Below are positions 3,594 to 64,000 of a DNA stretch of 64,000 nt, one piece after another. The stretch is from Schmidtea nova (Eukaryota), in contig CM097882.1 of the NCBI GenBank assembly GCA_044892505.1, positions 368,652,001-368,716,000 of the forward strand, written 5' to 3'. Under the pieces are notes generated by a model. It had not been told where the DNA came from, made no database searches, and saw only the letters and a program-made list of their open reading frames with translations. Position 1 is the stretch's first letter; each line of letters begins with the position of its first letter. The translations under genes and the position numbers were made by a program.

Positions 3594-3595
3594 AC

Positions 3596-8340: not shown

Positions 8341-8343
8341 TTA

Positions 8344-19221: not shown

Positions 19222-19226
19222 ACGAA

Positions 19227-22166
19227 GTCATCACCCAACAATGTTAAAATAGAAAGTACGCTCTGTTACAAGTGTGGGAGACCTGGACATTACAAGAACA
19301 AATGTACTATGCTAGAATGTTGGACATGCGGGAACACAGGGCACTCATCCAGACAATGTCAAAAAAGATCGCAGGGAAACGCCAGAAGAGAAACTGTAGC
19401 GCCAGCGGTTTCTCAATAACGTCGGGAATGGCGCAGGTGATAATAAAGCTTAAGGTGAACGGCAAGTGGTGCATTGGATTGGTCGATTCTGAATGTTTCC
19501 AAACAATAGCGTCAAGCAGGCTTGCGAGAAGTAGAGGCGAAACCAAGGATGTCATCTCTGTAGATGGTCGAAGAGTGCATTGCGAAGGAGAGAGCCAATG
19601 CAGAATATCCGTACGCGGATCTTGCGTTACGGTAAATTGTTTGATCATGAAAAACCTTGTAGCAAGGGTGGACGTTGTTCTGGGACTTGATGCAATTGGA
19701 CTTCTTGGAGGCGTTTGGATCAATAAAGAAGGAGTGCGATTTGGTGGATGTGCAGTTTCATCAATTGAGAATGAAGTGAGAATTGAAGATGATGATTTTT
19801 CAGCGTCATTCGATGGGAACAAATGGACCGTATCCTGGAAGTGAAAGGACAAACCTACCCTGCTGAAAAACCATGTCTCAGAATATGCAATAAAACCAGA
19901 AATTCGACAGGAGTACGAAAAGGAGGTCGAGCGTTGGATCAAAGAAGACTGGCTGATTCCAGCGAATTGCAACGATCATGGTATCGTGCCCTTGTTAGCA
20001 GCAGTGCAAGAAAACAAAGGGAAAGTCTGATCGGTTCTTGACTTCAGAGAGCTCAATAGTTTCGTTGAATGTCACACCGGTGACAGCGATGTATGTGGCG
20101 AAAGTTTGAAGAAATGGCGACAAATGGGAGATCAGGAGGTTATGCTTGATTTAAAGAATGCCTATTTGCAGTTACATGTCAGTGAGTATCTTTGGAAATA
20201 CCAAAAAGTTAGATACAAAGACTAACTGTACTATTTAACAGGATTGGGATTCGGCCTCAACTGTGCTAAAAAAATAATGTCTCAAGTGCTCAGAAAAGTG
20301 CTAAGCCTCCACCCCAGAATCAAAGTTGCGACAGAACACTACATTGATGATATCGCTGTTAATACAAGTAAAGTTCAAGTCAATGAGGTCGTCAATCATT
20401 TAGCTCAATACGGCTTGACTACAAAGCCAGCCGAATCAATTGAAAACGCAAAGGTTTTTGGGCTCAGAATAAAACGTGATCGTCAGGGCCACCTTTCATG
20501 GATCAGGGGAAATGATGTCGGCGCAATCGAAAGTGAAATCACTCGTCGGATGCTGTTCTCTATATGCGGTAAGCTTGTTGGACATTATCCAGTTGCAGGG
20601 TGGCTCAGAGTAGCGTGCAGTTATATTAAAAGAACTGCAAAGGGCACGAAATGGGATGATTTAATTGGAAAAGAATGCGAATCGAAGCTGTCAGAAGTTA
20701 TTACTCGTGTCAAATCAAACGATCCAGTCAAGGGAAAGTGGACAGTAAGTAAAAGTGAGTGTGGGGTTCTGTGGTGTGATGCGAGTAGTCTCGCCTTAGG
20801 GGTTATGCTGGTAATAAATAATGACGTCGTTGAGGTTGCTTCGTGACTCAGAAAAGGTGATGACCACTCTCATATAAATGTTGCGGAACTAGATGCGGTA
20901 CTCAAGGGTATTAACTTGGCAATACAATGGGGAGTTAAGAGAATCTAGTTGATGGTGGATTCAGCAACGGTAGTAAGTTGGTTAAAAACAGTTCTGAATA
21001 ATGAAAGCAGAATACGGGTCCATGGAATTTCTGAAACGCTCGTCAGACGCCACCTGGGGATCGTCAAAGAACTCACCGTCGACGAAAGTATATCTATCTC
21101 TGTATGTTTAGTGAAGTCAGCAGAGAACCGAGCAGATGTCCTCACGCGTGTTCCAGAAAAATGGCTGAAGCCTGGGAATCTTTTCGGATGTGTAAGACTC
21201 TCAATTGAGCAAATAAAGGCCCGCCATCGGAAACACCATTTCAGCTTAGAAAAATCAATCTACTTCATTCAATCGGAAAATCCGGAGACCAACCGAGACT
21301 GTATAAAAGAAGTCTTGAGAAACTGTACAGAATGTAGGTCAATCGACCCATTACCGATTAAATGAGAGCAAGGCACACTGGAAGTCTCGGAAAACTGGAA
21401 GAGATTGGCGGTTGACGTCACGCATCACGAGGGATCCACATTTCTGACCATGGTGGAATGTGGGCCCAGCAGATTTGCAATCTGGAGGAAAATAGATCGT
21501 GAGGACGCCCCAAACATTGTGAGAAATCTGGAGGAAGTATTTCGGGAGAGAGGCCCAGTATTGGAACTACTGATGGATAATGGGGCAAGTTTTCAATCTA
21601 ATTCTTTGAGAGAGCTTTGTTGTAGATGGAATGTTAAACCGACCTATAGATGCGCTTATCGGCCGGCTGGAAATGGGATCGTAGAAAGAAACCACCGAAC
21701 AATAAAGTGTCATGCAGCCAGGAGTCATGCAGATCCCCGAGATATCGTCTTCTGGTACAATTCCGCGCCTAGAGATGGAACTAATCAGGAAACAGCCCCA
21801 TCAGAAGGGTTGTTCAAGTATCACTGGAGATTTTACCGAGGAAAAGAAGATGAACGCTCAGTATCATGTGAATATACACCTGGGCAAAGGGTTGTTGTGA
21901 AGCCACGACAAGCAAAGTGTACTACTCAATGGCCCATTGGAATTGTAACTGGAATTAATTTCGGCACAAACATTGAAGTGGATGGAATACCGCGTCAGAT
22001 TGCAGACATCCGGCCATTAGTGGAAGAAGATATTGCTGACGAAAAATCAGAGACAGACCGAGCAAGTGAGGAGGAGATGAAAGTTACAACGCATGAGGAC
22101 AGGCCGAGACGACCACGGAGGAAGCCGCTTTATCTTGATCAGTATGATTTGGATGCATCATACTAA
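19227..22166 (+). pseudogene. pol: gag C-terminus and pol of element B (multiple stops)
   Basis: CYKCGRPGHYKNKC and CWTCGNTGHSSRQC, GGGAAAC at 19374-19380, LVDSEC protease, YIDDI RT, WCDASS RNase H, integrase AVDVTH / MDNG / GIVER. Confidence 0.9.
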
Positions 22167-22177
22167 TCACGGGGGAA

Positions 22178-35479: not shown

Positions 35480-38334
35480 TCTCCCCGTGATTTTCGTCTT
35501 CGTTCACGTTAAAACTTGTTTCAAAATCATCAAGGTATCGAGGTCTTCTGGTCCTGACTCTAAGTTCATCTAGGCGCAAGTAGTCTAATGTTGGATTATC
35601 AACGCTTGTTAGTCCTTCATCGTTGTTGTTATCCACTGACACTTCGTTGACAGCAGGTCGTATATCAAAATAGTGGCGCGGTATCCCGTTGATTTCGAAG
35701 TTGGTCGATGAATTTACCTTGGTTACACTCCCCTCACCCATGTTGAGGTGCATTTCGCATTTGGTGGTTTAACGTAAACTGCATCGCCAACTTGGAACGA
35801 AGTATACTGTGTCTTCCCTTCTGTATTACGTGCGCCATCTCCTTTCTACCAATATGAAAACACGGGAGAGGATGGAGGCGTTTTGAATTTTTCATTAGGT
35901 GCTAGGTTGTACCAGTATACCATGTCCAATACTCCCTTGTTGGTTCTGGCTGACATACGTTTAATAGTATGATGGTTCCGTTCTATTATACCGTTCCCGG
36001 AAGGCCTATAAGCACATCGAAACACACATTTTACACCCCATTTGTAGCACAGTGCTTTCATTTGTGTTGACCGAAATGAAGACGCATTGTCGATCACCAG
36101 TTCATCAGTTGAACCTCGTTCTCTGAAGATCTGTTCAAGGTTCCGTGTAATGGTCTCCGCATCTTCACTTCTTATTTCCCTCCACAGAGCGAAACGACTC
36201 GGTCCACAATCAATCACAGTCAAATAAAGCTTACTTAAATAGTGTGTAACATCCATAGCCAGTCTCTTCCATGTCTCCTTAACGCTCAACTCTCCATGCT
36301 CCCATTTAACAGGCGCTGGATCGATAGATTGACACTCTACACATTTACCTATTATTATCTTAACATTCTCAAGCGTAACGTCCGGACAAAGTTGCTTTGC
36401 AAAATACAACGTCTTCTTGGCTCCAAAATGATGCTGTCTGTGACTTTCTCGTACCACTTCGCTCATAACAGCAACGGTGCTTACAGTTGGTTCATCACAC
36501 GATTTAACCCAAGTCAGCTATTTGTTACTGACTCTTGTGAGTACATCTGCTTTGTTTTTATCTGTCGGAACAAACTCAACCGAGATCGTTAAGTCATAAC
36601 TCTTTCGTAATTCACAGATAATCTGCAGACGTCTTCGTACTAGCATTTCAGCAATTCCATGAGTTCGGATTCTAGCAGTATCCGTTAAAACTGAATCTAT
36701 CCAACTCCTAACGGTATCGGAATCTGTTATTACAACTAAGTTGCTTCTTTCCCAGCTGATGGCTAAGTTAATTCCCTTTATCACTGCATCCAGCTCTGCA
36801 AGGTTTATATGAGCAAAATCGTTTTTCTTCCTCATCCATGATGCATCTTCGACGATTTTACCTGATATTTCAAACACCACTCCTAATGCCAGATTACTTG
36901 CATCGCACCAGAGTATTGTAGATCCTTCTTTGTTTACGTGCCCCTCACCAGACACCGGATCACTTTCTTTCACACGATACATCATTTCGTCGACCATTCT
37001 TAGCGCGATCTTTCCAATCGAGTCATCCCACTTACTCCCAGCACTGTGTCGTTTTATATAGCTACTCGATACTCTCAACCATCCAGCAACTGGATAGTGC
37101 CCAAAGAGTTGACCGCAGAGTGAAAATAACTCCCTTCTTGACATGTCTGTAAACTCGCTGTCTGGCAAAATGTATCCACGGTGCCACGTACGACCGTTAA
37201 TACTCGTTTGAAGCTGGAGACCTAGCACTCTTGCATTATAAAACTCTTTCGGTGACTTTGTAATTAGCCCGTATGTTGCCAAATGGCTTATTACTTCATT
37301 GACGTTTATTCTCGACTGGTCGACAATAATGTCGTCAATATAACTGTCTGTTGCTTTCCTGATGTCTTCTCTTAAACGTAATACCTTTCGTACTATTGTT
37401 GACATTATTTTTGGAGCCACATTTAAACCAAAACCGAGTCTCGTTAGAAAGTATCCGTTCCCTTTGAAACTAACCCTTTGATGCTCCCATAGCTCTTTTT
37501 CCACATGGATCTGAAGATAAGCATTTTTAAGATCAATTAATATAACCTGTTCGCCCATCATTCGCCATCACCTTAATGATTCGCCACATACGTCACTTTG
37601 TTCATTATGACTACTAACATATTTATTTAGTTCCCGAAAATTCATTACCGGGCGAACTTTTCCTTTGTTTATTTGCTCTACTGCTAATAACGGGATTTTT
37701 CCATACGCGACGTCTTTCGTTGGAATTAGCCATCCTTCTTGAATCCACCGTTCAACCTCCGTATCAAACTTGATCTGTAGCCCTGGATCGATTTTGTAAT
37801 TTGAAATTCTATTCAATAGTACAACTGGTTCTGCTTTCCATTTCCACTTCACGGTCCACTTGCTATCAATGAATACTGCTGAAAAATCACCATCTTCAAT
37901 TCGCACATTTTCATTTGACTGATCCAACATCTCAGCCACGCACGATACATCTGCAATACCTGGAAAAGATACACCAGTCTTGTCAATTTAAGACCACCAA
38001 GCATCCCTATTACGTCCATTCCTAAAATCATGTCAACATTTAGTGGTAGATTCAACAACGAGACACAATCAACACTCAATAATTTACCACCAACAATCAG
38101 TTGAACTTTCACATCACGCATACACTTGACTAGTGATCCATCCGCAGTCATGATACTCCCATTCCGCATAAATCGATTCTTCGCAATTCTGGCTGACACG
38201 ACTGATTTGGAACATCCCGAGTCGATCAATGCTTTCACGGACTCCCCATTGGTCATGACAGAAATAAACTAAAGCGCCATTATATTCGTGCTGGAGTAGA
38301 CGCTGGCGCAAGCGTTACTCCTTTTCGGTTTCCC
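35475..38334 (-). pseudogene. pol: pol of element C with premature stops
   Basis: ALIDSGC, LIDLKNAY, YIDDI, WCDASN, HINLAEL, LAMDVTH, IDNASS and GIIER. GGGAAAC slippery site at 38328-38334. Confidence 0.9.
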
Positions 38335-38972
38335 GACTCTGAATTTTTGGTACACTCCTTTGCAATGTGGCCCTTTTCTTCACACCGCCTACACTTCTTT
38401 CCTTGTTTCTTAAAGCAACGTCCTTGTATATGGCCATTCTTTCCGCAATACAAACATTTCTTATACTTGTCTTATTTTCCCACAACAGCCGAACATAGTT
38501 CCATAGTGTCGCAGTTTACTAAAACTCGGGACTGTTTCAAAACATCAACAAGAGACATCTGCTGAATTTTGGCATTGGATCGTAACTGTTGTGACGTTGC
38601 TGTTGGCAAACCCATAATGAATGCGCTTTTTATTAAAATCTCATTGTTTATCTTGGCCAATGATGCTAAGTTTTTGAGATCATTCAAATATACATCGACT
38701 GGCTCATTGCACCACTTTCGTTCACGGAATTGGTCATATGCTTGGAACATATCTATGGAATAGACATCGATTAGAGCATGTTCGATCTTCAATGCGTTGC
38801 CCTTGTCTTCCGCACTCAAATACTGATATACAGCGAAAGCTGGCCCATCTAGGTATAATGGAATAAATGATTCTAAACCTGCGATTTTCTGAATTTTTAC
38901 CACTAGCTTCACTTTTTGAATCCACTGTTGAACATCGCCTTCTCCTCTGAAAATTGGGATCATCTTGTCCAT
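38275..38972 (-). pseudogene. gag: gag of element C (stop at 38472 before the two CCHC knuckles)
   Basis: ORF 38472-38972 continues after the TAA into CLYCGKNGH...C and CRRCEEKGHIAKEC. Confidence 0.85.
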
Positions 38973-38976
38973 TATT

Positions 38977-38988
38977 GCCGCGATAGCT
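38977..38988 (-). promoter_or_regulatory. Non-canonical PBS-position sequence AGCTATCGCGGC (element C)
   Basis: Directly after the 5' LTR end. Identical to element B although the two LTRs are unrelated in length and sequence. Confidence 0.65.
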
Positions 38989-39075
38989 TGTTGTTTCTAT
39001 AAAGACAAGAAAATCACGCTTTATTTTAAAAATCTATTATACTCAAATTTCTGCGTATTCAAACAAATTTTTACA
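38989..39075 (-). repeat. 5' LTR of element C (87 bp)
   Basis: Direct repeat of 35393-35479. Confidence 0.9.
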
Positions 39076-50081: not shown

Positions 50082-50349
50082 TGCTGGGATTATGGGAGGG
50101 TTTCAAGTAATTCAAATAAATTATTAATCATTAATTGAACGACTATTGATGAGTACGTATACTAGGGATTCCACGCCCATAACCATACATAACATGACTA
50201 CTACACGCGTATGCCCTTGACTATTCCCTACTAGTCAAGTTGGTACTGCATACGGTGGTGGAAAAATGATGGGCAGGTGAGCTTTGTTGCCAAAACTACT
50301 CCCCATTTATCTTCCCTCGGGTCCTTGCTGCCGATAGAAGGTCTTACGC
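50082..50349 (+). ncRNA. Conserved structured motif, copy 3
   Basis: Perfect stems CGTATGC/GCATACG (50208-50214 / 50248-50254) and CTTGACTA/TAGTCAAG (50216-50223 / 50232-50239). Loop TTCCCTAC. Confidence 0.55.
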
Positions 50350-50620
50350 ATTTTCATTCTATGGATGTTCGCCCTACTGAATTTTTTTATCACACGCCTT
50401 TCCCAATGACTTTCCTTAATTTATCTACAATGTAATTAATCAGTCCCTGCGTATAAATGGTCGGTTTGAGAAAATTTCGGGTGCGATTTTTTTATTTCGA
50501 TGATTTCATTGTTGTTATTTTATTTTATTTAGTAACATCCCCCGATGAGAGACAAAATTTACACAGAAATACTTTTATTAAAATACTAAAAACAGGATTG
50601 TTATTTTACATGGATGTTTC

Positions 50621-51205
50621 CTAAGCGAATTCCAGACTAATCTCCTGAATCAATTCCGCTTCGGTTAAGGAGTTCAAGTGGTGGATTTGTTCGTCCAGAC
50701 GCTTCGCAAATTCTCGGCGACGACGACGCTGTCGCGATCCCATTCGATGTTTTCGAAGCTGTTGGGTTATGACCGGTGCTGACGCTATTGTTCTCGGGGG
50801 ATCACTGAGAAAAATAGGCAAATCTTCCGTTGTAAGAGAGGGGGCCAGGATGATTCCCTCTTCCGTCCCGCAAGCGACATCTTGGTGAGTGCATTGTATC
50901 CAGCGCTGAGCCGTGATCGGCCGGATTAGCGCTCGCAATTCGGAGTCGATGTAACTTCTTGTTACTGCATTTAGGCAATTTCGGAGTTCTCGCTGGACGG
51001 CATCTAGTTCCAATTTGGTTGCAGCCAGTGCTTCCTGCATTCGCTCAAGTTTTTTCGACTGGTCCTTCATTTGTTCGGGCGAGAACCACTTCGCTCTCAA
51101 TTCATCATTGGCGACCGTGAGTCGCTTGATCTGTCGCTGCTGGTCCCTCAACTTCCTCTCTTGGATTTGTCCCATGATTTTCTTGGAATTTTCTGAAGTC
51201 GGCAT
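50621..51205 (-). CDS. 194-aa ORF inside the LTR: coiled coil, Arg-rich motif, Leu-rich tail
   Basis: Intact ORF with elevated GC. RMGSRQRRRRREF. TTCAG 5 nt before the ATG. Confidence 0.6.
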   Translation of the reverse strand: MPTSENSKKIMGQIQERKLRDQQRQIKRLTVANDELRAKWFSPEQMKDQSKKLERMQEALAATKLELDAVQRELRNCLNAVTRSYIDSELRALIRPITAQRWIQCTHQDVACGTEEGIILAPSLTTEDLPIFLSDPPRTIASAPVITQQLRKHRMGSRQRRRRREFAKRLDEQIHHLNSLTEAELIQEISLEFA

Positions 51206-51523
51206 GTTATCTGAATATTATAACGATAAATTCGCTGGAGGACCTATCAACAATTCTATTTTATTTAGTCTACTATTTACTATTGTTAAACGAGATGCAT
51301 ATTAATGTTTTTAATTATTGAGTTCTCTACAAAATTATTTAACTATCTAATCATTGAAGACTCAAAAGATTTATTGAACTAATTTTATATTAATAAATGA
51401 ATTTCCTAATGACTATAACAACTACAATACTAAATCTACATGACAACACTATTAACAAAATGAGACACTTCCGAATTTTTAAAACATTTATTAAATTCAA
51501 AAAACAGGCGGCCATTGATTCCG

Positions 51524-51991
51524 CTATTCATCTTCGGTCATTTTTCCTCGATATGAAAATATCGATCTGATTTGCAAATTTGTGTTGATATTGGACGAGG
51601 CCTGCTGAAAACGGATCCTCTCAGCTTCCCGAAGGGGTCGTATTGCTGTATTGAACTTGAACCCCAATTCCTTGAAGGTAGAGGCTGGAATGAACCCCCA
51701 ATATATCACACATTTCGGGAATCCTCCCTTATCCAACATCAGGACGAACCAGGCGGCGTGCCATGATTCGAATTCCTCGTCTGGAATGATTGGCCAACTA
51801 GCGCATCCCCGGTACCATACGTGATGCCGTGGATGGTCCCATACTGTAAAGGGACAGGCGGTTTCAAGCTCTCGGCGCCATGCCCACATTTTTTGATGGA
51901 TTTGCTGTAAAATCTCGAAAGGAGCCGGCTTTAATGGGCTAACTCGGGCTCGTTCTTGTCGTTTTTTGATAGTGTATCTATGCTTAGTCAT
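51524..51991 (-). CDS. 155-aa Trp/aromatic-rich ORF inside the LTR, function unknown
   Basis: Intact ORF with elevated GC in an AT-rich context. TTCAG 15 nt before the ATG. Confidence 0.55.
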   Translation of the reverse strand: MTKHRYTIKKRQERARVSPLKPAPFEILQQIHQKMWAWRRELETACPFTVWDHPRHHVWYRGCASWPIIPDEEFESWHAAWFVLMLDKGGFPKCVIYWGFIPASTFKELGFKFNTAIRPLREAERIRFQQASSNINTNLQIRSIFSYRGKMTEDE

Positions 51992-52250
51992 GATTCCAAA
52001 ACGATGCTGAATTTTATAATAGTTACAATTTACATCAATAATTAATTATAGTAAATGTTATCTCTCATCGTGATACCCTTATTATTTGCCTTCCCCTTAG
52101 ACCTTAGCTGAAATCACGAGAAACTGTCGTTCGCTATGGTATGCATTACTCTCGTATCTACTTAGCTTTATCTGTTTACGATCACTATTATAGTTGAAAA
52201 AAAAAAAAAAATGGTGATTTGTCTGCTTGGATTTTCAAAATATTGATACC

Positions 52251-52520
52251 TCAAAACGGAAGCTCTCTCACGTCATGTATCCCTAGCTTATTCGAAAAAC
52301 GCTCCTTTGTATCAAATGCGGTCGACATAATTTTCCTAAGGTTTATTAGACGTTTATTAAACAGCTGCGCTGTGGTGAGGGTGAAAAATTGTGCCTCCTC
52401 CCGGTTAACAAATTCTTTCATATCTTTAAGCTTTATCAAAAAATTATCGTCCCCTCTGTAGCTAAAATGATCGGAAAATAATTCCCCGGATTTGTTGGGT
52501 GTCCCATGTGCAAGTCTCAA
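52251..52520 (-). CDS. Possible 89-aa ORF inside the LTR
   Basis: Open frame with plausible composition. No recognisable motif. Confidence 0.3.
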   Translation of the reverse strand: MRLAHGTPNKSGELFSDHFSYRGDDNFLIKLKDMKEFVNREEAQFFTLTTAQLFNKRLINLRKIMSTAFDTKERFSNKLGIHDVRELPF

Positions 52521-52894
52521 CCACTACTAATAAAATTAGGTTTTGCTATTTATTACTTTACCGTGTGTGGAGCCCTCGAGCACCACGCCACGGACGGACA
52601 CCTTGGGAACCTAAAGCTCCCAACGGCGCGAGATTAATATGATAGATTAAACAGTTTAAATACGACATAAATCAAAATGAGATGAATAATATATTATAAT
52701 ATGATAATGACATATGAATACAACATCAAATAATGTACCAAAAATACCTCAATTGAATTCTGAAAATTTATTGATCAAAATCGGTCTAAACGGTGATCGT
52801 CGTCGGGGCAATGTGCAATCTAATGCGAATTTTTAGTTAAAGTCTAAATTTCAGTCTAACAAAGTCTACTGAAGTCTCACTCTAGTCAAACGTC

Positions 52895-52962
52895 TCAGTC
52901 TGATTTTATGAAAAATCTGATCAGTATTTATACTGATCAGTCGTGTCTAGACCGACCAATCA
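52895..52962 (-). promoter_or_regulatory. LTR core promoter: inverted CCAAT, TATAAATA, Inr-like TCAGAC
   Basis: CCAAT at 52956-52960. TATA at 52925-52932 inside a perfect 10-bp inverted repeat. TCAGAC at 52898-52903, about 25-30 nt downstream. Confidence 0.65.
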
Positions 52963-53531
52963 GGTTCGGCCATTTTCAGGGTGGTTTTTAATTATTGTTC
53001 TTGATTCTAATTAATTTTTATTTTTTAGATTGTATTCTTCCTCGGAGGTCTGGGTTTCAAAAACAATTATTCAATAACAAGTACTTTTATTTTGTTTTAA
53101 TTACCATTATTTGTATTTATTTTGTTTTTTAGATGTCTCCTGGGCCAGTTAATATCTCGAAATTCCTCTATTTTTATTTATAGCTTGTACTTAGTTTGTC
53201 TATATTTTTATTATATTACTCCTTTCTTTTAATAAATAAATATTCCCCTTTTTATCTTATTTTTCTCTTTTTTGTTTTAATTAATCTACTTTTATTTCAC
53301 TGTTCTCTCTATTTGGCTGGCCCAACATCACTCGGGGACCCCTAAAATTGCGTCCCGCAATTAATTATACATTTACACCTATATCATCATACATAAAAAT
53401 TAAGCAGATAAATGTCAATTTACATATACACAAAGAATCACGTAAGGTGATAGATTTTATACGTAAGCACAAGGTCATATTATTGTTAAATGTAAGTGGA
53501 TCATACATAAAGTGAATGTAATATATCAGTT

Positions 53532-54104
53532 TTACACAAGCTCTTTGATTTCATGATTGGTATTGGATTGGATTGGGGTTCTTTCGCTGATTGTTCGTAG
53601 TTCGTAGTGGCTTTGGATTCGGTTTAGGTGTTTTCTCATTCGCTTTTGGGTTCTGATGTCTTGTATTGTTGTTCGATTCAGGATGACATGTTTTTGTTTT
53701 AAGATCTTCACTCGGTATGATGTTATGAGGATTGTGATCGCGATAATGGTCACGCTGAGTGCAAGGATTATTATAATTGCGATGATCCATTTTTCTTGAT
53801 ATTCTATCTCTGCTTGGGCTAAGCTTTTTATGGGTTCTCGACCTTCTTTTAGGGTTTTTCTGATTGTTTTCAATTTGATTCGATGTTCATATAGGACCTG
53901 TTGAAATTTTTCATCGTTTGGGTTGTCTGATGTTATCTGTTGAAGTTGGGTGATTTCTTGTGTTGCTTCGCTGATTAGTTTATCTAGTTCTTGATAGGTT
54001 TTCTCGGGTAGGGCTCGTAGCTCCTTCTCTGTGAGTTGAAGATCTTCTCTTTGTAGGGTGATTGTTATTAGGTATAGGAATATCGGTATTCTGAGCTTTT
54101 TCAT
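53532..54104 (-). CDS. Cargo ORF4: 190-aa predicted type-I membrane protein with a luminal coiled coil
   Basis: Hydrophobic N-terminus, heptad-rich middle, WIIAIIIILALSVTIIAITILITSY transmembrane segment and a basic tail. Confidence 0.75.
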   Translation of the reverse strand: MKKLRIPIFLYLITITLQREDLQLTEKELRALPEKTYQELDKLISEATQEITQLQQITSDNPNDEKFQQVLYEHRIKLKTIRKTLKEGREPIKSLAQAEIEYQEKWIIAIIIILALSVTIIAITILITSYRVKILKQKHVILNRTTIQDIRTQKRMRKHLNRIQSHYELRTISERTPIQSNTNHEIKELV

Positions 54105-54186
54105 ACTGTTTTCTTTACAGATAGGTCAATACAATTTGACACTACATTTCATACAATTATTTACAAAATTATATTTTCCGCTTTAT

Positions 54187-55248
54187 TTACACAATCGTCT
54201 CGTTTGGTTCGTAGAAACCTTCGTCCTGAGGCTCTACTTGGTTCGTGGGGAGTGGTATCCAAACAACCCTGCTCCTCCACATTTCGACTTCATCTCGATA
54301 CATGTGAGATATCTGGATCTCCTCGTCTAGCAAATATTCTAGGTAATTTGCTTGTTCTGTTAATGTTTCTATTTGTTCCTCTAATTCGATTACTTTTGTC
54401 TTTTGTTCGTCTTCTTTTATCATTTTTGTTACGGCTGCCGTTATACTTGCTTCTTTGGGTATTACTGATACTGTTACTCGTTTCTGTTTCAATTCTTCGT
54501 TTTCTTTCATCAAATTCGTTAAATTTTCCTCATAACTTTGCTTCGCTTCCTTTAACCTTTCTCTGGTTCTTTTTAGCTCTATTTTCCTCTGGGTAATCAC
54601 TCCTTGATAACCATTTATATCTCTCTTCATCTCTTCTTCTTTCTGATTCCATATTCCGGTGAGCATAGATTTCAGTTGTTCTTGATTAGCTAGTTCTTCT
54701 CCCATTCTTTGAACTTGATAGGTTAGTCCTTTAATTTTCTTTGCTTGTTCGCGGATAAATTGCTGTCTTTTTGTATTCCATCTTTTATTTAACACTTCCT
54801 GGTTGATTTTTTGCTCTAACTCGTCTTTTAGTTCATCGATCTCTTTATATAACTTCCAGTCATCACTATAAGCTGTCCTTTCTATTATTTCTCTAGCTTT
54901 TTCGTAAGATTCTTTCGCTTCTTTCTTCCAGTATCTTGCTTGTTCTGTAATCGAATACATCTTGTGTTCAGCTTCCATCTGCTGTCTGTCTCTTTCCTCT
55001 CGTCGCTCTTTCATCATTCTCTGGTAATATTCCTTTTGTTGTTGTAGCATTTTGTATACTTCTTCTATTTTTTCTCGACTTCTTTGACTTGATCTTTCCG
55101 CTTCTTTTAATAATTCGGCTTGTCTCTCTATCTCCTCTTGCTTTCCATAATATGCATTGACCCATATTTCAATCTGTTCTAGATGATCGCTAATCGCTTC
55201 TGCTTGATGCATCGTAATTTCCTGTAAGCATACCTCGATATTTCCCAT
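54187..55248 (-). CDS. Cargo ORF3: 353-aa long coiled-coil protein ending ETIV
   Basis: Intact E/K/R/Q-rich ORF. Confidence 0.8.
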   Translation of the reverse strand: MGNIEVCLQEITMHQAEAISDHLEQIEIWVNAYYGKQEEIERQAELLKEAERSSQRSREKIEEVYKMLQQQKEYYQRMMKERREERDRQQMEAEHKMYSITEQARYWKKEAKESYEKAREIIERTAYSDDWKLYKEIDELKDELEQKINQEVLNKRWNTKRQQFIREQAKKIKGLTYQVQRMGEELANQEQLKSMLTGIWNQKEEEMKRDINGYQGVITQRKIELKRTRERLKEAKQSYEENLTNLMKENEELKQKRVTVSVIPKEASITAAVTKMIKEDEQKTKVIELEEQIETLTEQANYLEYLLDEEIQISHMYRDEVEMWRSRVVWIPLPTNQVEPQDEGFYEPNETIV

Positions 55249-55362
55249 TGCTATAATTACAGAATGAAAATTTTAATCGGTTTATATATCAGTTATTTTT
55301 GTTTATATAATAATTTTTTGGGTATTTAACTGTACATATTATTTACATGATCACTTCTCTTG

Positions 55363-56745
55363 TTACGTCAACCATCCTTTTCTATCTGCTTTCTCATTCC
55401 TTTCCATTTCTATGTATAGGGTGTCTGCATATAATCGTTCCCATAGGCTTTCTTTCGTTATAAACATCGGTTCTCCCGCTGCTAATCCACATTCTGTGGT
55501 TGGTTTCTCGCTCGTACTCGCATGTTTCTCTGTCTCAAAGAATTTTTCTACTGGTTTTGTTACACTTCTGATTCTTACAATGACTCCTACTTTCAAGGGC
55601 CATTCTACTAGGTCGTCGTATTCTCCTTTACATAGCGAGAAAAATATTGACACATGTGTTCCTCGTCCTCTTCCGTCTCCATTTGGGTATAGCTTCAATC
55701 TCACTTTAGCTCCGTTTCTCCATAAATAAAATGGTGGGCTTATTACTGCTGTTTTCGTCATATTTCGGGCCTCTGTTAATTTGTTTCTAAAATCTGTCAC
55801 TTTCCACACATATGGTGCGATTGGTAGCTTTTCCTCGGTATCCTGGGTGAGTTTGTTGTACTGGATTTTCATTCCTTTAGCCAATTCTTCGATAGCTTTT
55901 ATCTTTTCCTCCATCTTTTCTCGTGTTAGTTCGAATTGCTCTCTGGTTTCCAACAGTAGGTTTACCATTATCTTGTGTGACTCTATTTCTCTTTCTAATT
56001 TTTTGATTGTTTGTTCGGTTTCTTTTGTTGTTTCGTTTGTCATTTCCGCATGCTTTAGCAATGCTTCCTCCAGATGTTGTTTCATGGTTTGTTGCGTTCT
56101 TTTCTCCATACATCCCTGTTTGTTATAAGGACATTCCCTTGGTTTCTCCGTGCACACTTTCCAATGTTCTTGTAATTTTACTTCTACCGTTATTTCGCAT
56201 TCGTTTGAACATATTCCTACATATTGTCTACATACTTTCTCCTCTTTTACATTCAGGTGTTCTTCTTCGATCTTTCTCCTCGTTTCTCGAGCTCCACAAT
56301 ATTCGCATAGACTTTCCTCTTCTTTACATTCATCTTTGTGCTGCTCTTTATTCTTTATAGTTATTTTTTGTTGGCATTTGTTACATTCAGTTCTCTTCTC
56401 TTCGCAGTTCTCCAGATGGTTCTCGAGATCGCGTATTTGTCCTTGCCATATACATGGTTGATTTATACATTCGGTTTTCGTGTTCATGATTTCTCTCTGA
56501 GTTGCTCTATCTGGTCCGGTTTCTTCGAATTTTATTTGTCCTTCTTTGCATTCTGGACATTCTGGTGGTCTTTTCATACTTAACTCGTGTATGCATTTGG
56601 TACATACTCTGCATCCGCATAGGGTTTGTCTTGGTTTCAATATTATGTTTTTACAATTTACACAAGTGAGTCTCTGACTCCATTTCCTGTTCTCGGCTCT
56701 CAAAATTTCGATTATCCGCTCTTCGGCTTTTCCTTCTGTATTCAT
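55363..56745 (-). CDS. Cargo ORF2: full-length TRAF-family protein (RING, TRAF zinc fingers, coiled coil, MATH)
   Basis: CVNC...CGCRVC..C...CPEC RING. Repeated C..C...H...C fingers. YVWKVTDF...SPPFY...KVRLKLYPNGDG.G.GTHVSIFF...GEYDDLVEWP MATH domain. Confidence 0.93.
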   Translation of the reverse strand: MNTEGKAEERIIEILRAENRKWSQRLTCVNCKNIILKPRQTLCGCRVCTKCIHELSMKRPPECPECKEGQIKFEETGPDRATQREIMNTKTECINQPCIWQGQIRDLENHLENCEEKRTECNKCQQKITIKNKEQHKDECKEEESLCEYCGARETRRKIEEEHLNVKEEKVCRQYVGICSNECEITVEVKLQEHWKVCTEKPRECPYNKQGCMEKRTQQTMKQHLEEALLKHAEMTNETTKETEQTIKKLEREIESHKIMVNLLLETREQFELTREKMEEKIKAIEELAKGMKIQYNKLTQDTEEKLPIAPYVWKVTDFRNKLTEARNMTKTAVISPPFYLWRNGAKVRLKLYPNGDGRGRGTHVSIFFSLCKGEYDDLVEWPLKVGVIVRIRSVTKPVEKFFETEKHASTSEKPTTECGLAAGEPMFITKESLWERLYADTLYIEMERNEKADRKGWLT

Positions 56746-56836
56746 TCTACAATGATATATACACTTGATTTGTTATCTATTTTTTGATTTTTCTTGTTTT
56801 TGTTTTTACATATTTACAATTTTTCGCTTTATTTAT

Positions 56837-57193
56837 CTACGGCTCGTTTGTTGAATCTGGTTCTGGGTCATTTTCTGATCTGTTTATTGCCCAATTTGTC
56901 CATCCATCCTCTGCTTCTTCTGTCTCTCCCATTGTTAAACGGTCTATCTCTATTGCTTGTCTCTGATTTATGTCGCTCATCACTTGATTCTCTCTGGTAA
57001 GTTGCGTTATCAATCTCTGTTGCTCCTCGATTCTGTGGAGTTGTTCAAAACTATTATTATAACTTTCGGATAACAAATTCTGTTTCTCAATTAACTGATT
57101 TTGTAGTGAGTTGATTGTTCGTATTAACATGTCACACTGGGCTTTCCATCGCATAGCCATAGTAGTTTCTGCTATTTCTTCCTGTTCGTTCAT
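56837..57193 (-). CDS. Cargo ORF1: 118-aa coiled-coil protein with an acidic tail
   Basis: Intact Q/E-rich heptad ORF, co-oriented with its neighbours. Confidence 0.7.
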   Translation of the reverse strand: MNEQEEIAETTMAMRWKAQCDMLIRTINSLQNQLIEKQNLLSESYNNSFEQLHRIEEQQRLITQLTRENQVMSDINQRQAIEIDRLTMGETEEAEDGWTNWAINRSENDPEPDSTNEP

Positions 57194-57318
57194 TTTCTAA
57201 ATTATATACATTAATCGTTTTCTCGATTTCTCTTTTTATATTTTTATAATATCGATACCCATACTATTACGGTAATGCATTGTTATTTACACTATTATTT
57301 ACAGTCATATCCCGCCTC

Positions 57319-60300
57319 CTATATCACCATCACTGTCTTTCCTTCGTATCGCTCTTCATCTTCTATTTGTCTCCAAAATTCTTTACCTTTCGTCCTCCTT
57401 TGGAATTCTTTATGTACTTCTTCCGGTAATTCTATACTGTAGTTCATAATCTTTATATCTGGCCAATGTGTTATTGGTTTCTTGTTGAATACATCATATA
57501 TCCATATTATTAATAATACTGTTATTACTGGAATAGTTGCTGCTAGTATTCTTAGACCAATTAGTTCTCTAACTTGTTTGTTTACGTCCATCTTCGTAAT
57601 TTCACTCTGGTTAATCATTGGTCCGTATTGTCCCTTTAGTTTATTTAGTAGTTGTTCTCGTTCTTGTTGTTTTCTTTTAACTTCTTTAATTACTTCTTCC
57701 GGCGTCCATCTTGCGTAAGGGTCTATTACTACTTGTTCTGCGTCCATTCGTTTCGTTGTCTGACTTAATTCTTTAAATTCGAGTTTTCTCACTTTCCCTT
57801 TGGACGTTGAGTTTACCGGTGTGTAGTACGTTTCGCATCTTTCCTGCTGATTTCCCAATATGTCCGTCTTTTCTACCGCACATATCTCGTATTCTCTATT
57901 AAATTTCAGATTTTTGATACTCATTTCTTCTTTTCCTTTTATGTTTTCGCAGTATCGTGGCTGTCTTTCTTTTTGTTCCTGAACTACTGCCCAACATATT
58001 TCTAACGTTTTATTGTCTATTCTCCATAGTATAAGAGTTGTTGTAGTATTCTTTTCGGTTTTTCTTTGTATTTCTTGGTTTTTCTGTTGTCCATTAGGTT
58101 TAAAGGTAGTGGTATACCTCGCTTTTCCTTTGTTCCGTTGTCTTCTACTTTTTCGCGTTGTCTTTCCAACTCTTGTTCTGGTGGGTGTTTTATATAATTT
58201 GCATTCCAATTCATTTACTGTTATTTTGTCGCTCTTCCTGATCAGGCATATTTCGTACGTTTGATTACTTTCTAACCCTTCTATCTGTATTGTGGTTGTT
58301 CCTCTGTTTGTTCGACATTGCGGCGGTGTATTCTGGTTTGTTTTCTTTTCCTGCTTCTTCCAGCATACGCCTTTGACGTCCGGTTCTATTCCGGTTAACT
58401 CTAACATTATAGTTGTTCTCCGTTTGGTGCGTTTATTTCTTCTTCCTCGTCGTATGAACTTTATTGTTTCCCCAGGTTGAAATGTTTTACAACTTGTCGT
58501 TCCTTTCTTGTGTCTTTCTTTTTCTAGTAAACATAGTTCATACGTCCTGTCTGCTTTTACTTCTGATATCTTGGTTACTTTATTTGTTTTCCTTTTCCGA
58601 CTCGTCTTTATTTCGCTTACGCCAATTTCTTCGTTGCTTCTGGCCCAACACTTTGGGTTGGTGTTTTGGGTGTCGTTCATCTCTGTTACTGCCATTGTGT
58701 CAATGTCTATCCCTTCTTCTAACCGTTTTAACATTGTTAATAAGAGTGCTAAACATAGTAATTCTGTTTGGTAGGTCACTCTTTCGGTCTCGTTTGTGGT
58801 TACTCTTGCTTCGGGCCTGTCTATGGTAATTTGTATAGTTGGCGTTGTTCGTCTGTCTATTGTCTGGGGTTTTTTGTTTTTTGTTCCTTGGGTCTCTGTT
58901 TTTCCACACTTTCCTACGACGTAGTCTCCTTTGGATGTCTGCTGTACTGTTATGGTTACTTTGGGTGTTAGGTAGTTTGCACATGCGATTGTGTTGTGTG
59001 ATCTTGGATTCTTTTGTTTTCTGATGGTGCATATTTTGTACCAAGTATCTAGCTCTAAGTCATCGATCTCTATGATTTCTTGTTCATATTCTGAGATCCT
59101 GCAATCCATTGGACTATTTTGTCCCGATATTTTGTCCTTTTTTGACCAACATACTCGTTCGATTCCTTTTGCGTTTCCAATTTGTATTGTCGCTCTTTCT
59201 TCACATATCATTCCTTGAGTTGGACTAATTAAGGTCATGATTACCGTTAGTAATAATAGTTCTGGTTTAAAGAATGGGTTTATTGTTTGTTTGTAGCCTG
59301 TTCTTTTTGCTTCGTTTTTATTTTTATAGTTGTTGTTTCTTTGTTTCCCAAATTCATTTTTCTTATCATTTTTCTCTGTGTCCCTTCCTTTCTCTTCACT
59401 GTCCTCTTCATCTAATAACTCATGATCCTCTGGATTTTCTCGAGTACTATCGTCGTCGTTTCCTGTATTGTCGCCTCCCCTTTGGTCGTTGAAAATGTCG
59501 TCCTCGACATTAATTGCTTCTATCATTTTTTCATACGTTATGGTTGTGAGTATACTTGCTTCATATTCTTGTGTTACTGCCTGCTTAGGTATTTCCTTAT
59601 CGGTTAATTTACAATCTAGAATCTCTTTCTTGGCTTTTATCCAATTATTAAGGTACGTTTTCATTAGTTCTTTCCATTTGTCCGTACGTTCTGTTTCCTT
59701 TGGGTTGTTTGTGAATCGTAAATCTTTTCTTCTCATGAAGATATCTATTATCTTTGGCCATTTGTTTATTATTAATGCACACTTTATATACAAATTTTGG
59801 CCTTGTTCCATGCACTCGTTGATCCTGAATGCTGGTTCATTGGTGTTTGGGTTCATCCAATTGAGTATTGCTTCAGTTAGTTCAGCGTTATGCATCATGG
59901 AATGTACGCTAGCTTTTTTAACTGTCCTTGTAAGGTATTCTATTTCCTCCTGATTTGTGATTGTTTTTATAAAATTTATCACTTCCCAATTGTGCGTTAA
60001 CAACGCTACGTCTAGTATTGAGCTGTCTTTGTTCGTTCTTCCCATGAGTCTTGCACCTGCTTCGTACAGTTCCTGTAACACTCGGGTTTTTGTGTTCGCT
60101 CTTGCTGCGAATATCATGAGGGTATCTCCCTTTTTATCTTTCATGTTCATGTCACTTCCGCAATCTTGCATCAACCGTGCAATTTCGACTACCCTCCTAT
60201 CTTTTCCTGCTCGTAAGGCTCTATGTATTGGCAATACTCCATTCTTTGTTAATAAGAAAGTCACTGGCATTTCTCTTTTTATGATCATCATATCGTTTTC

Positions 60301-63300
60301 ATTGTAAGTTCCTTCCGCATATGCGTGTACCTTTTCCACAATTGCTCCGAGTATCTCCAGTGTATGTTTAGAATTTTCGAATTCTGGTAATAGTTCTTTT
60401 GCTTTGTCCTGTATCGCATCTAACCTTTCTTGATATGGTACCTCTGCGCTGAAAAGTGGTGTAAATTTCCTTTTGCTTTCTCTTTCCTTTTGACATAGGA
60501 ATTGTTTGCATTTTTCGGGGTGGTTTAATGTGTCTATTAGTTTGTCATACTCCTCCTCCACCGTTTTATATTTGTCTTGAAAATTGGATATATCTTTGTA
60601 AGTTATCGTCTTGGTTAGCGATTTTGCACACCATTCCCTAATTTTCCTGAATAATGCTTCTTTTTCATTTTCGAATTTACACTCCTCTTTGTTTTTGGAA
60701 ATTATGATATTTCTTCTGTCTAATAACGTTAACAGTGTTTTCTGGTCACAAACTAATTTTAATAGGAATTGTAATAACGCGTTTTGTCCTTTACTGTATA
60801 CTTCGTTTATATTTAATACCCATGTATCATTTTCGGATCTTTTCCATTTTATTAGCTTGCGTATTGTTTTGCAGTTACCGATTTTTATTGCCTCCTTGAT
60901 TATATCACCTTTGATCAGTTCGTCTATTTCCCAAGTGGCCTTCTCGATTATTTGTTTGAGCATTATCTGATTTGAGCTCCATATTGCGTGATTCAAGACT
61001 GTTTTGTTTTCTCTATCGCGTTCCGTCCAGTTGAAATCGGCATTTATCAAAAGGTCTATTATTGCTTTATCCGATTTGTAGATGGCTGCTACCATTAATG
61101 GTGTTTCTTGTTCGCTATTCCCAAAACCAAGGTGTTGGTTTGTTTCCTTAGCGATTTTTAGAAATTCTTTTACTCTTTCTACTTCTCCCCATTTTATGGC
61201 GTTATGTAATGCTGGTTGTCCTCCTATGTCTTGTAGTGAAAGTATTTCTGGAATTTTCTCCAGTAGTTCTGAAACGACTGGTTTTGTTGGTAGTCCCCTT
61301 GCGTAATCACTAATTATCGACTGAATGTCTCTTAATATATCGTCTCTGACATGCCATTTTCCCATTATTTCTCTGGCTTTTAGTACAATTTCCTTGTTTC
61401 TTTTTTCTTGTTGATTGTTTTCTGCTTCTGTACTTTCATTGGTTGCTCTGAGCATATTCATTCTGGCTGTCTGGGATCTGGTTATTATTCGTTCTTCTGG
61501 CGCTGTGGTTATTGTCTTTGGTACTTTTTTGCATCTGCATGTATTAACGTATATTGGTCGTATCAATGGTCGATTAACAAGTTTTACCTTCACATTGTTT
61601 TCCTTTTTGTATATAACTTCGTAAGGGCCTTTTCCTGGTCTTTGTAGTTTTTTAACGGTTCCTAGTATTATTTCTGGGGTTTCTATCATTACCCAATCTC
61701 CGGGTTTAAGATCATTTGTTTTAACATTTTTCTTTTGATCGTGTAGGTCCTTGTAACTTTCTTGATAAAACTTTATGTTTAGTTCTGCTGTCTTCCATAT
61801 CTCTTGCATTCGTTCTTTGAATTTGGTGACGTAATCATCTTCCTCCATATATTGAGACAAGGGTGGTTGATATTCAAGATCTATTGGCATATTGCATTCC
61901 CTTCCATACATTAATTGAAATGGACTCAATTTTGTTGCTGCGTGTATCGACATTCGGTATGCTATTAGACATAGCTTTATGTACTCATCCCAATCTGTTT
62001 GGTGTTTGCTTACATAATTGGATAACATTCGAATCAATGTGCCGTTAAATCTTTCCGTTTGTCCATTGGTTTGCGGATGATATGGTGACGTTCGTAATTT
62101 GGCTATTCTGAAGTAATTTGTTACTTCATCTAATATTTCACTCATAAAATTTGTCCCTTGATCTGTCAGTATTTGTTTCGGGGTTCCGTATCGACAACAT
62201 ATTTCCTCTACTAAAATTCTTGCTACGGTCTTTGCTTTTTGATCCGGCATCGCAAATGCTTCAGGGAATTTAGTCAAATAATCCGTTATTACCAATATAT
62301 ATTGATTCCCGTTTAAACTTTCTGGCAATGGTCCTATTACATCCATCGCAATGGTAGTCATTGGTTCCGCTGGTATTGGCATGGGTTTTAAGGGATTTTT
62401 CCATTTCTTCCCACTATCCTTTCTTGTGGCACAAGTTAAACAGTTCTTTATCCATTCCTTTACGTCTTCGTCCATTGTTGGCCAATAATATTTTTGTCTC
62501 ATGCGATCTAATGTTTTCTTATCGGACATGTGTCCTCCCAACTTTCCGTCGTGGTATTGAGTTATTATCTCTTTTCGTCTATTACCTGGCAGACACATTA
62601 ATCGTTTTTCTCCATCCTGTATTAATAACCATCCTTTTTCTATTGTGTATCGATGTTGGTATTTCCTCATGTGTTCTTTTAACTCCGCATTGTCTTTGAA
62701 TACATCCATATTCCGTGAGCTTAGGAATTCTATGATGGGTCTTAGTTCTTTATCCTCTTGCTGATCTTTCTTTAACTCGCTGAAATCCAAATCCTCTGCT
62801 ATCATTATGCATATTCTTTGCACTTCTGGGTCTGTTAATTCTGGAAACGTTAATCTTGACATGCAATCTGCGTTGGCATTCGCTTTTCCTGATTTGAATT
62901 TTATATCTGGTGAATATTCTTGTAATTGCATCGCCCATCTCATTAATCTGCTGGATGTTTCCTTATGTTGTCCTAGCCATACCAGTGGTTGATGATCCGT
63001 GGTTATGCATATAATGTGTCCCCATAATAGATATTTAAAGTGTTTTATTGCTAATATTATTGCCAATGCTTCTCTCTCCGTTACTGAATAATTCTTCTCG
63101 TGTTTCTTGAATGTTCTGCTATAATATCCGATCACTCGTTCTTTACCTTCGTCATCATATTGTCCTAACACTGCTCCTGCTGCATATCCACTTGCGTCAG
63201 TCGCGAGTAAGAACGGCTTCTTGAAATTCGGGTGAACCAATATTGGTGCAGTTATTAGCTTATCTCTCAATGTTTCAAAGGCTGTTTGTTGTTCGCTTCC

Positions 63301-63999
63301 CCATATGAACGATACGTCTTTCTTTACTAGCTCCTGGATTGGTTTTGCAATTCCTGCGTAATCCTTTATGAATTTTCTATAGTAACCGCATAATCCGAGA
63401 AATTCTTGGATCTGCGTTATAGTCTTTGGTATTGGACATTCTTTTACTTTATCAATGTTTCTGGGATCCGGTTCCTTTCCTTTTGCGGACACAATATGTC
63501 CTAAGAATGTCACTTTCTCTTTTGCCCAATCACATTTCGATGGTTTGAGCTTGAGTTTCCATTGTCTCAATCTCACAAATACATCTCTGATATCTTGGAT
63601 GTGTTGTTCAAATGTGCCTGAATATATTAACAGATCGTCGATGTAAACCATGCATTGTTTTATGCCGTGGGTGACAAAATTCATACATCTTTGAAATGAT
63701 GCTGGCGCATTGGTTAGTCCAAATGGCATTTTCCTAAATTGGTACAAGTCTCTTCCGATAGTGAAAGCAGTTTTCTCTTTGTCTTCCTCCTTCATTTTAA
63801 TTTGCCAGTATCCGCTTTTCAAATCCAATGATGTAAAATATGCCGCTCCTTGTAATGTCAATAACATCTCGTTGATGTCCGGTAATGGGTAGGTATCCCT
63901 TTTTGTAACTGCATTTAATCTCCGATAATCAATACAAAATCGTTGTGTTCCGTCTTTCTTTTTCACCATTACAACTGGGAATTGCCACGGTGAGCAGCT
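57319..63999 (-). CDS. pol: Pol (RT, RNase H, integrase, GPY/F) fused in frame to ankyrin repeats and a signal / FN3-like / TM module; open beyond the window edge
   Basis: MPFGL, YIDD, LATDAS, HHCC, AMDVIG, TDQG, QTER and GPY (about 64000-61600). Ankyrin motifs GQPALHNA, ETPLMVAA, LPIHRA and DTLMIFAA (about 61225-59950). Hydrophobic signal at 59212-59265. Four CW...L....YEIC...C repeats. TM at 57497-57565. No stop over 2216+ codons. Confidence 0.92.
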   Translation of the reverse strand, partial: SCSPWQFPVVMVKKKDGTQRFCIDYRRLNAVTKRDTYPLPDINEMLLTLQGAAYFTSLDLKSGYWQIKMKEEDKEKTAFTIGRDLYQFRKMPFGLTNAPASFQRCMNFVTHGIKQCMVYIDDLLIYSGTFEQHIQDIRDVFVRLRQWKLKLKPSKCDWAKEKVTFLGHIVSAKGKEPDPRNIDKVKECPIPKTITQIQEFLGLCGYYRKFIKDYAGIAKPIQELVKKDVSFIWGSEQQTAFETLRDKLITAPILVHPNFKKPFLLATDASGYAAGAVLGQYDDEGKERVIGYYSRTFKKHEKNYSVTEREALAIILAIKHFKYLLWGHIICITTDHQPLVWLGQHKETSSRLMRWAMQLQEYSPDIKFKSGKANANADCMSRLTFPELTDPEVQRICIMIAEDLDFSELKKDQQEDKELRPIIEFLSSRNMDVFKDNAELKEHMRKYQHRYTIEKGWLLIQDGEKRLMCLPGNRRKEIITQYHDGKLGGHMSDKKTLDRMRQKYYWPTMDEDVKEWIKNCLTCATRKDSGKKWKNPLKPMPIPAEPMTTIAMDVIGPLPESLNGNQYILVITDYLTKFPEAFAMPDQKAKTVARILVEEICCRYGTPKQILTDQGTNFMSEILDEVTNYFRIAKLRTSPYHPQTNGQTERFNGTLIRMLSNYVSKHQTDWDEYIKLCLIAYRMSIHAATKLSPFQLMYGRECNMPIDLEYQPPLSQYMEEDDYVTKFKERMQEIWKTAELNIKFYQESYKDLHDQKKNVKTNDLKPGDWVMIETPEIILGTVKKLQRPGKGPYEVIYKKENNVKVKLVNRPLIRPIYVNTCRCKKVPKTITTAPEERIITRSQTARMNMLRATNESTEAENNQQEKRNKEIVLKAREIMGKWHVRDDILRDIQSIISDYARGLPTKPVVSELLEKIPEILSLQDIGGQPALHNAIKWGEVERVKEFLKIAKETNQHLGFGNSEQETPLMVAAIYKSDKAIIDLLINADFNWTERDRENKTVLNHAIWSSNQIMLKQIIEKATWEIDELIKGDIIKEAIKIGNCKTIRKLIKWKRSENDTWVLNINEVYSKGQNALLQFLLKLVCDQKTLLTLLDRRNIIISKNKEECKFENEKEALFRKIREWCAKSLTKTITYKDISNFQDKYKTVEEEYDKLIDTLNHPEKCKQFLCQKERESKRKFTPLFSAEVPYQERLDAIQDKAKELLPEFENSKHTLEILGAIVEKVHAYAEGTYNENDMMIIKREMPVTFLLTKNGVLPIHRALRAGKDRRVVEIARLMQDCGSDMNMKDKKGDTLMIFAARANTKTRVLQELYEAGARLMGRTNKDSSILDVALLTHNWEVINFIKTITNQEEIEYLTRTVKKASVHSMMHNAELTEAILNWMNPNTNEPAFRINECMEQGQNLYIKCALIINKWPKIIDIFMRRKDLRFTNNPKETERTDKWKELMKTYLNNWIKAKKEILDCKLTDKEIPKQAVTQEYEASILTTITYEKMIEAINVEDDIFNDQRGGDNTGNDDDSTRENPEDHELLDEEDSEEKGRDTEKNDKKNEFGKQRNNNYKNKNEAKRTGYKQTINPFFKPELLLLTVIMTLISPTQGMICEERATIQIGNAKGIERVCWSKKDKISGQNSPMDCRISEYEQEIIEIDDLELDTWYKICTIRKQKNPRSHNTIACANYLTPKVTITVQQTSKGDYVVGKCGKTETQGTKNKKPQTIDRRTTPTIQITIDRPEARVTTNETERVTYQTELLCLALLLTMLKRLEEGIDIDTMAVTEMNDTQNTNPKCWARSNEEIGVSEIKTSRKRKTNKVTKISEVKADRTYELCLLEKERHKKGTTSCKTFQPGETIKFIRRGRRNKRTKRRTTIMLELTGIEPDVKGVCWKKQEKKTNQNTPPQCRTNRGTTTIQIEGLESNQTYEICLIRKSDKITVNELECKLYKTPTRTRVGKTTRKSRRQRNKGKARYTTTFKPNGQQKNQEIQRKTEKNTTTTLILWRIDNKTLEICWAVVQEQKERQPRYCENIKGKEEMSIKNLKFNREYEICAVEKTDILGNQQERCETYYTPVNSTSKGKVRKLEFKELSQTTKRMDAEQVVIDPYARWTPEEVIKEVKRKQQEREQLLNKLKGQYGPMINQSEITKMDVNKQVRELIGLRILAATIPVITVLLIIWIYDVFNKKPITHWPDIKIMNYSIELPEEVHKEFQRRTKGKEFWRQIEDEERYEGKTVMVI

Positions 64000-64000
64000 T

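Follow-up and report, generated by a model that had tools for sequence, protein, structure and literature searches.

A 64,000-nt stretch of the Schmidtea nova genome (contig CM097882.1, positions 368,652,001 to 368,716,000; hereafter the window) holds the 3' part of a giant Burro-type gypsy long terminal repeat (LTR) retroelement with a cassette of four accessory genes downstream of pol, and we analyzed how these genes may be expressed. The explanation that we favour, and regard as probable, is that a leader transcribed from the LTR is cis-spliced to a YAG trinucleotide (Y, pyrimidine) before each of the four genes, in combination with a PUF-type module behind the internal stop codons. Such splicing has left direct traces for genes that lie within the LTR itself, and we infer it for the cassette. 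Transcription would begin in the LTR, the leader donor would be joined to one of the four cassette AGs across introns of 20.7–23.8 kb, and the outcome would be a nested set of one-gene messages, presumably with shared 3' ends in the 3' LTR. Burro cargo comprises apoptosis and immune signalling functions, and the mode of expression decides whether it can act independently of transposition. A supporting role of Burro1 in planarian stem cells has been reported (cited in the accessible part of PMC13465017).

A working splice donor in the LTR leader

The donor word AG/GTATTT (the slash marks the donor point) is located at 52747 in the LTR copy inside the window, 185 nt past the LTR TATA box, where it closes an ATG-free leader. 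An AG/GTA or AA/GTA donor was found 111–185 nt past the TATA box in all five leaders compared, four of which are ATG-free. This donor works and serves more than one acceptor within the LTR, since a GT..AG intron running from the donor to an LTR gene is exactly missing in three genomic elements belonging to two families. In the family of the window element, two of 29 copies lack sequence from exactly the donor point. One has its leader joined to the TTCAG acceptor 5 nt ahead of LTR gene 2, and the other, with a non-homologous leader that ends in the same donor word, is joined 4 nt ahead of LTR gene 1. The TAG used in the latter case is carried by two of 30 loci; the window copy is without it and has a CAG 15 nt upstream. 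In both elements the junction is present in both LTRs, as expected of copies made from spliced RNA. For the sister family the donor was predicted by position before the search, which then retrieved the third intron-less element, joined 6 nt ahead of an LTR gene; its unspliced relatives carry the AG in seven of seven cases and the GT in the four examined. Alternative cis-splicing from a leader donor, which the first-pass annotation had offered as a second way of resolving the transcript, is thus supported by a donor in the LTR, alternative acceptors and three intron-less genomic elements.

Two of the four junction-search matches proved to be a single element with a point change in the donor and not a splice, and one of the two sister-family matches was unrelated. 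The donor G is changed in both LTRs of the copy at G000:C2:264719700-264738400 (L081-L083), which has a 9.7-kb internal deletion and a whole cassette; the deletion in this donor-mutant copy does not end at a cassette acceptor. The leader exon (52748-52900; L001-L030) is highly variable within one family, with at least two non-homologous types and many indels around the same terminal donor word, and in one leader type an AATAAA ~25 nt ahead of the donor raises the possibility that the donor overlaps a poly(A) site. Contigs of unknown kind from four runs of one study, which covered the LTR intron and every bin, contained no splice-type ends among the joints listed; these contigs do not show the known intron-less LTRs either, and are therefore no evidence either way.

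Probable acceptors of the accessory gene cassette

The four cassette spacers, read on the minus strand, measure 125, 91, 114 and 82 nt, and their YAGs end 3, 1, 2 and 1 nt ahead of the ATGs at 57193, 56745, 55248 and 54104, just as first described. The chance of the four arrangements arising jointly is ~1e-5 in dinucleotide shuffles; the same arrangement is found at 57 of the 595 ATGs of the element. Every spacer contains one to four decoy ATGs upstream of its AG. The first-pass annotation had named a lack of conservation of the AG and UGUA positions between copies as a potential refutation, and both proved to be conserved: among 29 close copies the cassette YAGs show no change in 348 positions, and the octamers described below one change in 1624.

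We extended the comparison to 20 internal spacers from five families, namely that of the window element, a 59–77% relative, a 33–53% relative, a partial 65–78% relative and a family whose cargo differs for the most part. Left out were five fusion-family loci, which belong to a different 15–17-kb gypsy family without the cassette, and three other regions without a usable cassette. A YAG lies at most 7 nt from the ATG in 17 of the 20 spacers, with cargo as low as 33–53% identical; the exceptions are one AAG and two YAGs at 15 and 17 nt. The AG next to the ATG is kept while its flanks change. Host acceptors, deduced from domain continuity, are AT-rich and tolerant of A runs, and the cassette acceptors resemble them. 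The working donor, the conservation, the upstream decoy ATGs and the likeness to host acceptors together suggest that the four cassette AGs are used.

Several observations weigh against this explanation. Its main weakness is intron length, as the cassette introns would exceed 20 kb, with numerous YAGs in competition inside them. Acceptor 4 is rich in purines, with AAG in its place in one family; one of the leaders has two ATGs, and one of the genomic junctions has a 4-nt microhomology. Conservation within the family has little power in spacers 1 and 2, because these are almost invariant throughout (0.1% changed in the 29 copies); only spacers 3 and 4 (4.0% and 2.7%) offer a contrast for the YAGs and octamers. 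Nor do the 20 spacers count as independent cases: homology links four of the five families, the spacers look as if one module had been duplicated, and common descent by itself accounts for part of the fixed distance. The paired UGUA of the spacers fits CFIm25 as well, which the host encodes. Finally, genome pattern searches for the leader joined to cassette acceptors, which took in junctions with a T at -3 from an unknown donor and exons starting with G only in part and left aside the second and third acceptors of the sister family, yielded no true matches. The result is uninformative, as such genomic copies are not to be expected: with the primer site located downstream of the donor, this splice would take it out. 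Candidates rejected in the searches were one unrelated locus, one TAG-to-CAG variant in an 80% relative and 13 unspliced A-run variants.

Trans-splicing of an operon-like transcript, an unlikely alternative

The headline of the first-pass annotation was a spliced-leader (SL) operon, in which 3'-end formation in each spacer of a polycistronic RNA would free the next AG for the host SL. Planarians do have SL trans-splicing (PMC10899757 and PMC12582326, in the parts accessible), and intercistronic regions of ~100 nt ending in an acceptor are described for C. elegans and flatworm operons (accessible parts of PMC8629364 and PMC12582326). The cassette spacers (82–125 nt with a YAG), and those of four of the five families (73–125 nt), come close to the operon peak of ~100 bp given for Macrostomum in the accessible part of PMC8629364, and the cis donor is more than 20 kb distant. 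However, the 3'-end signal that an operon implies is not supported. Only one AATAAA occurs within the spacers, plus one overlapping a stop codon, against 3.9 expected, and at these two places the sister family reads AATAAG or AAGAGG, i.e. the signal is neither enriched nor conserved. The spacers are also mostly A-rich and not U-rich, and they have a working cis donor upstream, whereas SL use is favoured where there is none (same part of PMC8629364). Although all flatworm SLs reported in the accessible part of PMC12582326 end in ATG, the offset between YAG and ATG is a multiple of three in only six of the 20 spacers, and it slips freely within a family (7, 8 or 9 nt; 2 or 3 nt). Genome pattern searches found no SL-like sequence joined to the four exon starts, a weak argument. 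We therefore consider the operon quite unlikely, so that a transposon-borne SL operon, the more spectacular reading, is no longer the likely one. Some SL use at the cassette AGs, at a low level, is possible, since flatworm acceptors are often common to cis- and trans-splicing (accessible parts of PMC8629364 and PMC12582326).

Readthrough of stop codons across the spacers was ruled out, because spacers 1 and 2 of the window copy contain in-frame stops.

An octamer module anchored to the stop codon

The seven TGTA(A/T)ATA octamers reported in the spacers are all present, the positions first given being their low ends (starts in Table 1), and an eighth, at 54191, overlaps a stop codon. Fewer than one had been predicted by chance, and shuffling agreed, with 0.10 expected from mononucleotide and 0.32 from dinucleotide shuffles and a maximum of three in 5000; in a look-elsewhere test for any comparable 8-mer, seven was reached in none of 2000 shuffles. 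Within the spacers the motif occurs on the sense strand only. As claimed, two spacers begin with a common sequence; this is AATAAAGCG, at 56833 and 54187, which occurs in an unrelated small LTR too and is therefore not specific.

The octamers fall into two classes. Two lie beside acceptors 1 and 2, to whose tracts they may belong. The other class is formed by the first octamer of each spacer, and this motif is anchored to the upstream stop codon: in 17 of the 20 internal spacers it starts 12–22 nt past the stop (stop+12 to stop+22; 0.1–2% each in shuffles). The bases between stop and motif vary while their number stays, and the distance from motif to ATG ranges from 61 to 110 nt in the window element. 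A second TGTA follows ~8–13 nt beyond the first octamer in most spacers. None of the 15 stops of last, LTR or upstream genes has an octamer at this distance, and 10 of these 15 have an AATAAA within 100 nt. In the nested message set, the motif would thus follow exactly those stops with long 3' untranslated regions (UTRs).

A position set by the stop codon suggests that the motif works on mRNA that is being translated. The Pumilio-binding consensus is UGUAHAUA, which all seven octamers match, and host Pumilio carries the canonical base-reading residues according to the known recognition code. The reach of a terminating ribosome is ~15 nt; a literature search found no paper supporting a 15-nt ribosome shadow. 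The UGUAAAUA module ~15 nt past each internal stop may well be a cytoplasmic PUF-type site, a reading that we hold in even balance. Pumilio would then bind just outside the terminating ribosome and would shield messages with long 3' UTRs from nonsense-mediated decay (NMD) or set their level; shielding is possible, a step that we hold more tentatively than the binding itself. No octamer was found within 200 nt in the 3' regions of 16 host TRAF genes, a weak comparison as these are paralogues.

The same paired UGUA can be read by the nuclear 3'-end machinery. With leader splicing unchanged, a CFIm site would drive weak, regulated polyadenylation in each spacer and the messages would be monocistronic at both ends, a logic for which the adenovirus late unit is the model. 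Two TGTA ~8–13 nt apart would suit the host-encoded CFIm25, the octamer often runs into AATAAA, and the last gene, which lacks the motif, can use the LTR. Yet a motif tied to the stop codon would be keyed to something that this machinery does not read, and most spacers are without a U/GU-rich downstream element, whereas AATAAA and/or U-rich tracts accompany most of the LTR and upstream genes. Further, the CFIm reading of the UGUA in the first-pass annotation is not supported, as planarian poly(A) sites are reported to be without upstream UGUA, and CFIm59/68 were not found, in the accessible part of PMC5068929. CFIm-driven polyadenylation is a serious alternative, though less likely than not.

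Two readings would leave the AGs without their role as cassette acceptors. If each spacer were a small internal promoter, the AGs would be incidental or mark tiny 5' introns. TATA-like words do occur in spacers 1 and 3, and another gypsy family of the same genome has CCAAT and TATA ahead of its single accessory gene. However, the spacers have no CCAAT/TATA pair like that of the LTR, the TATA-like words are shared neither between spacers nor between families, and the motif keeps its distance to the stop and not to the ATG and occurs on the sense strand only within spacers, which makes internal promoters very unlikely. Ribosome reinitiation on one long RNA, aided by a factor at the stop-anchored motif, would leave the AGs unused, and it draws on the tie of the motif to the stop and on the shortness of the spacers. 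The decoy ATGs in every spacer, the conservation of the AG by the ATG amid changing flanks and the working donor-acceptor system of the same element speak against it, and we consider it the least probable of the alternatives.

Comparison with known elements

Burro, or GYPSM1, elements are giant planarian gypsy-like LTR elements with internal regions of up to 25 kb, a total of more than 30 kb and MATH/TRAF, BIR or RING cargo (PMC6431247). The window element resembles them in the order of gag, Bcl-2-like, mononegavirus-like fusion protein, protease (PR), reverse transcriptase (RT), RNase H (RH), integrase (IN) and ankyrin repeats, as well as in its TRAF/MATH cargo and accessory open reading frames (ORFs) (PMC6431247). 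At 28.4 kb it is near but under the published total. It differs in that TRAF has a gene of its own, placed after pol within a four-gene cassette, and in carrying two further genes in the LTR. The Burro section of PMC6431247 contains nothing on expression of the accessory ORFs, and a literature search, which did not reach the main Burro papers, found no published account of Burro splicing or of the stop-anchored motif. The present analysis gives exact positions for the donor and for the predicted acceptors of a planarian cassette, and through the new motif the element may be connected with Pumilio, with NMD or with control of 3' ends.

The predicted scheme, one leader serving several acceptors just ahead of ATGs, with nested messages and long 3' UTRs, is as in HIV-1 and Rous sarcoma virus (RSV) (accessible part of PMC7566565). 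Unlike in retroviruses, the donor here lies inside the LTR and upstream of the primer site, and therefore RNAs spliced to the cassette could not be copied back; the introns, too, would be >20 kb. The module recalls the RNA stability element of RSV, likewise a host-protein site past an internal stop in a retroelement RNA with a long 3' UTR, although here the site is predicted. The RSV element is at least 250 nt long and binds PTBP1 (accessible part of PMC7566565 for both points), whereas the paired UGUA module is ~20 nt, keeps a distance of 14–21 nt from the stop and is repeated after every internal stop. From ordinary Pumilio elements it differs in its fixed spacing from the stop and its pairing with a second, shorter UGUA. 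The literature search found no description of PUF proteins as a termination-coupled NMD shield. That a paired Pumilio site set exactly one ribosome footprint past every internal stop acts as such a shield, in an element which expresses six or more genes from one LTR leader in the manner of a virus and whose donor, hidden upstream of the primer site, keeps cassette messages from being copied back, is in this full combination rather unlikely.

Layout of the element and other observations

The element lies on the minus strand and extends ~14.5 kb beyond the window end (Table 1). Its internal region is 21.9 kb, and its LTRs of ~3.25 kb are 99.94% identical to each other and ~25.2 kb apart, flanked by a 4-bp target-site duplication, TAAT. 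Exact matches to the second cassette acceptor together with the start of its exon number 90 in the genome, and close copies of the element ~90. Pfam domains follow the order zinc knuckles, Bcl-2 (a weak match, E 0.066, below the Pfam cut-off), Monjiviricetes-type fusion protein, protease, RT, RNase H, integrase and ankyrin repeats; the polyprotein of the window copy is broken by one stop and one frameshift. The four ORFs downstream of pol encode 118, 460 (TRAF), 353 and 190 aa, and an upstream ORF is RING-like as judged by eye.

Table 1. Positions of the element's features, in window coordinates
Feature	Position	Strand	Description
3' part of polyprotein	57319..64000	-	RT, RNase H, integrase, ankyrin repeats, C-terminal extension; runs off window
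5' part of element	beyond window end	-	gag, Bcl-2-like, fusion protein, protease, 5' LTR
Spacer 1	57194..57318	-	125 nt; octamers 57303 (stop+15), 57291 (stop+27), 57210; acceptor-like TAG 57199-57197
Accessory ORF	56837..57193	-	118 aa; no Pfam family above cut-off; sister-family counterpart 53% identical
Spacer 2	56746..56836	-	91 nt; octamer 56818 (stop+18), second TGTA 56810, A-rich tract, octamer 56763, TAG 56749-56747
TRAF gene	55363..56745	-	intronless, 460 aa; zf-TRAF, MATH; RING-like cysteines by eye
Spacer 3	55249..55362	-	114 nt; octamer 55347 (stop+15), second TGTA 55336, TAG 55253-55251
Accessory ORF	54187..55248	-	353 aa; no Pfam family; coiled-coil-like composition by eye
Spacer 4	54105..54186	-	82 nt; octamer 54165 (stop+21), more TGTA copies, CAG 54108-54106 (purine-rich, weakest acceptor)
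Last accessory ORF	53532..54104	-	190 aa, hydrophobic stretch; no octamer past its stop
3' LTR	50082..53327	-	TG...CA, ~3.25 kb
LTR TATA box	52925..52932	-	CCAAT-like word upstream; ATG-free leader begins here
Splice donor AG/GTATTT	52741..52750	-	intron start 52747; copy serving cassette would be that of the 5' LTR, outside window
LTR gene 1	51524..51991	-	155 aa
Acceptor TTCAG of LTR gene 2	51211..51215	-	used in one intron-less genomic element
LTR gene 2	50621..51205	-	194 aa, then AATAAA and U/GU-rich tract

Past the ankyrin repeats, the pol frame (57500-59250, minus strand) contains a hydrophobic signal-like stretch, cysteine-paired repeats and a C-terminal hydrophobic segment, and this extension is ~32–36% conserved in a relative, far below the rest of pol. 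A 153-codon ATG-less open frame runs in frame into gag directly after a TTTTAG (L032:300-760, past the window end), and frames of 100–153 codons were seen upstream of gag in all four elements examined. A related element at G000:C1:477213000-477238000 (L095-L097), with 4.3-kb LTRs, seven downstream ORFs and apparently no pol, keeps the spacer module in four of its six spacers.

The 15–17-kb gypsy family, which bears an env gene, has CCAAT, TATA and a stretch resembling an intron ahead of its only accessory gene (G000:C2:299537001 + 21692..22089, L037, and relatives), which amounts to another way of expressing such a gene within one genome. Small decayed gypsy-type elements lie in the window at 2625-8952 (plus strand), 18984-22419 and 35393-39075 (minus strand), the last of which has 87-bp repeats holding AATAAAGCG. 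A 29-nt unit forms two arrays, inverted relative to each other, at 10700-12002 of the window, and a large host TRAF/MATH gene cluster is located at G000:C2:405-455 Mb.

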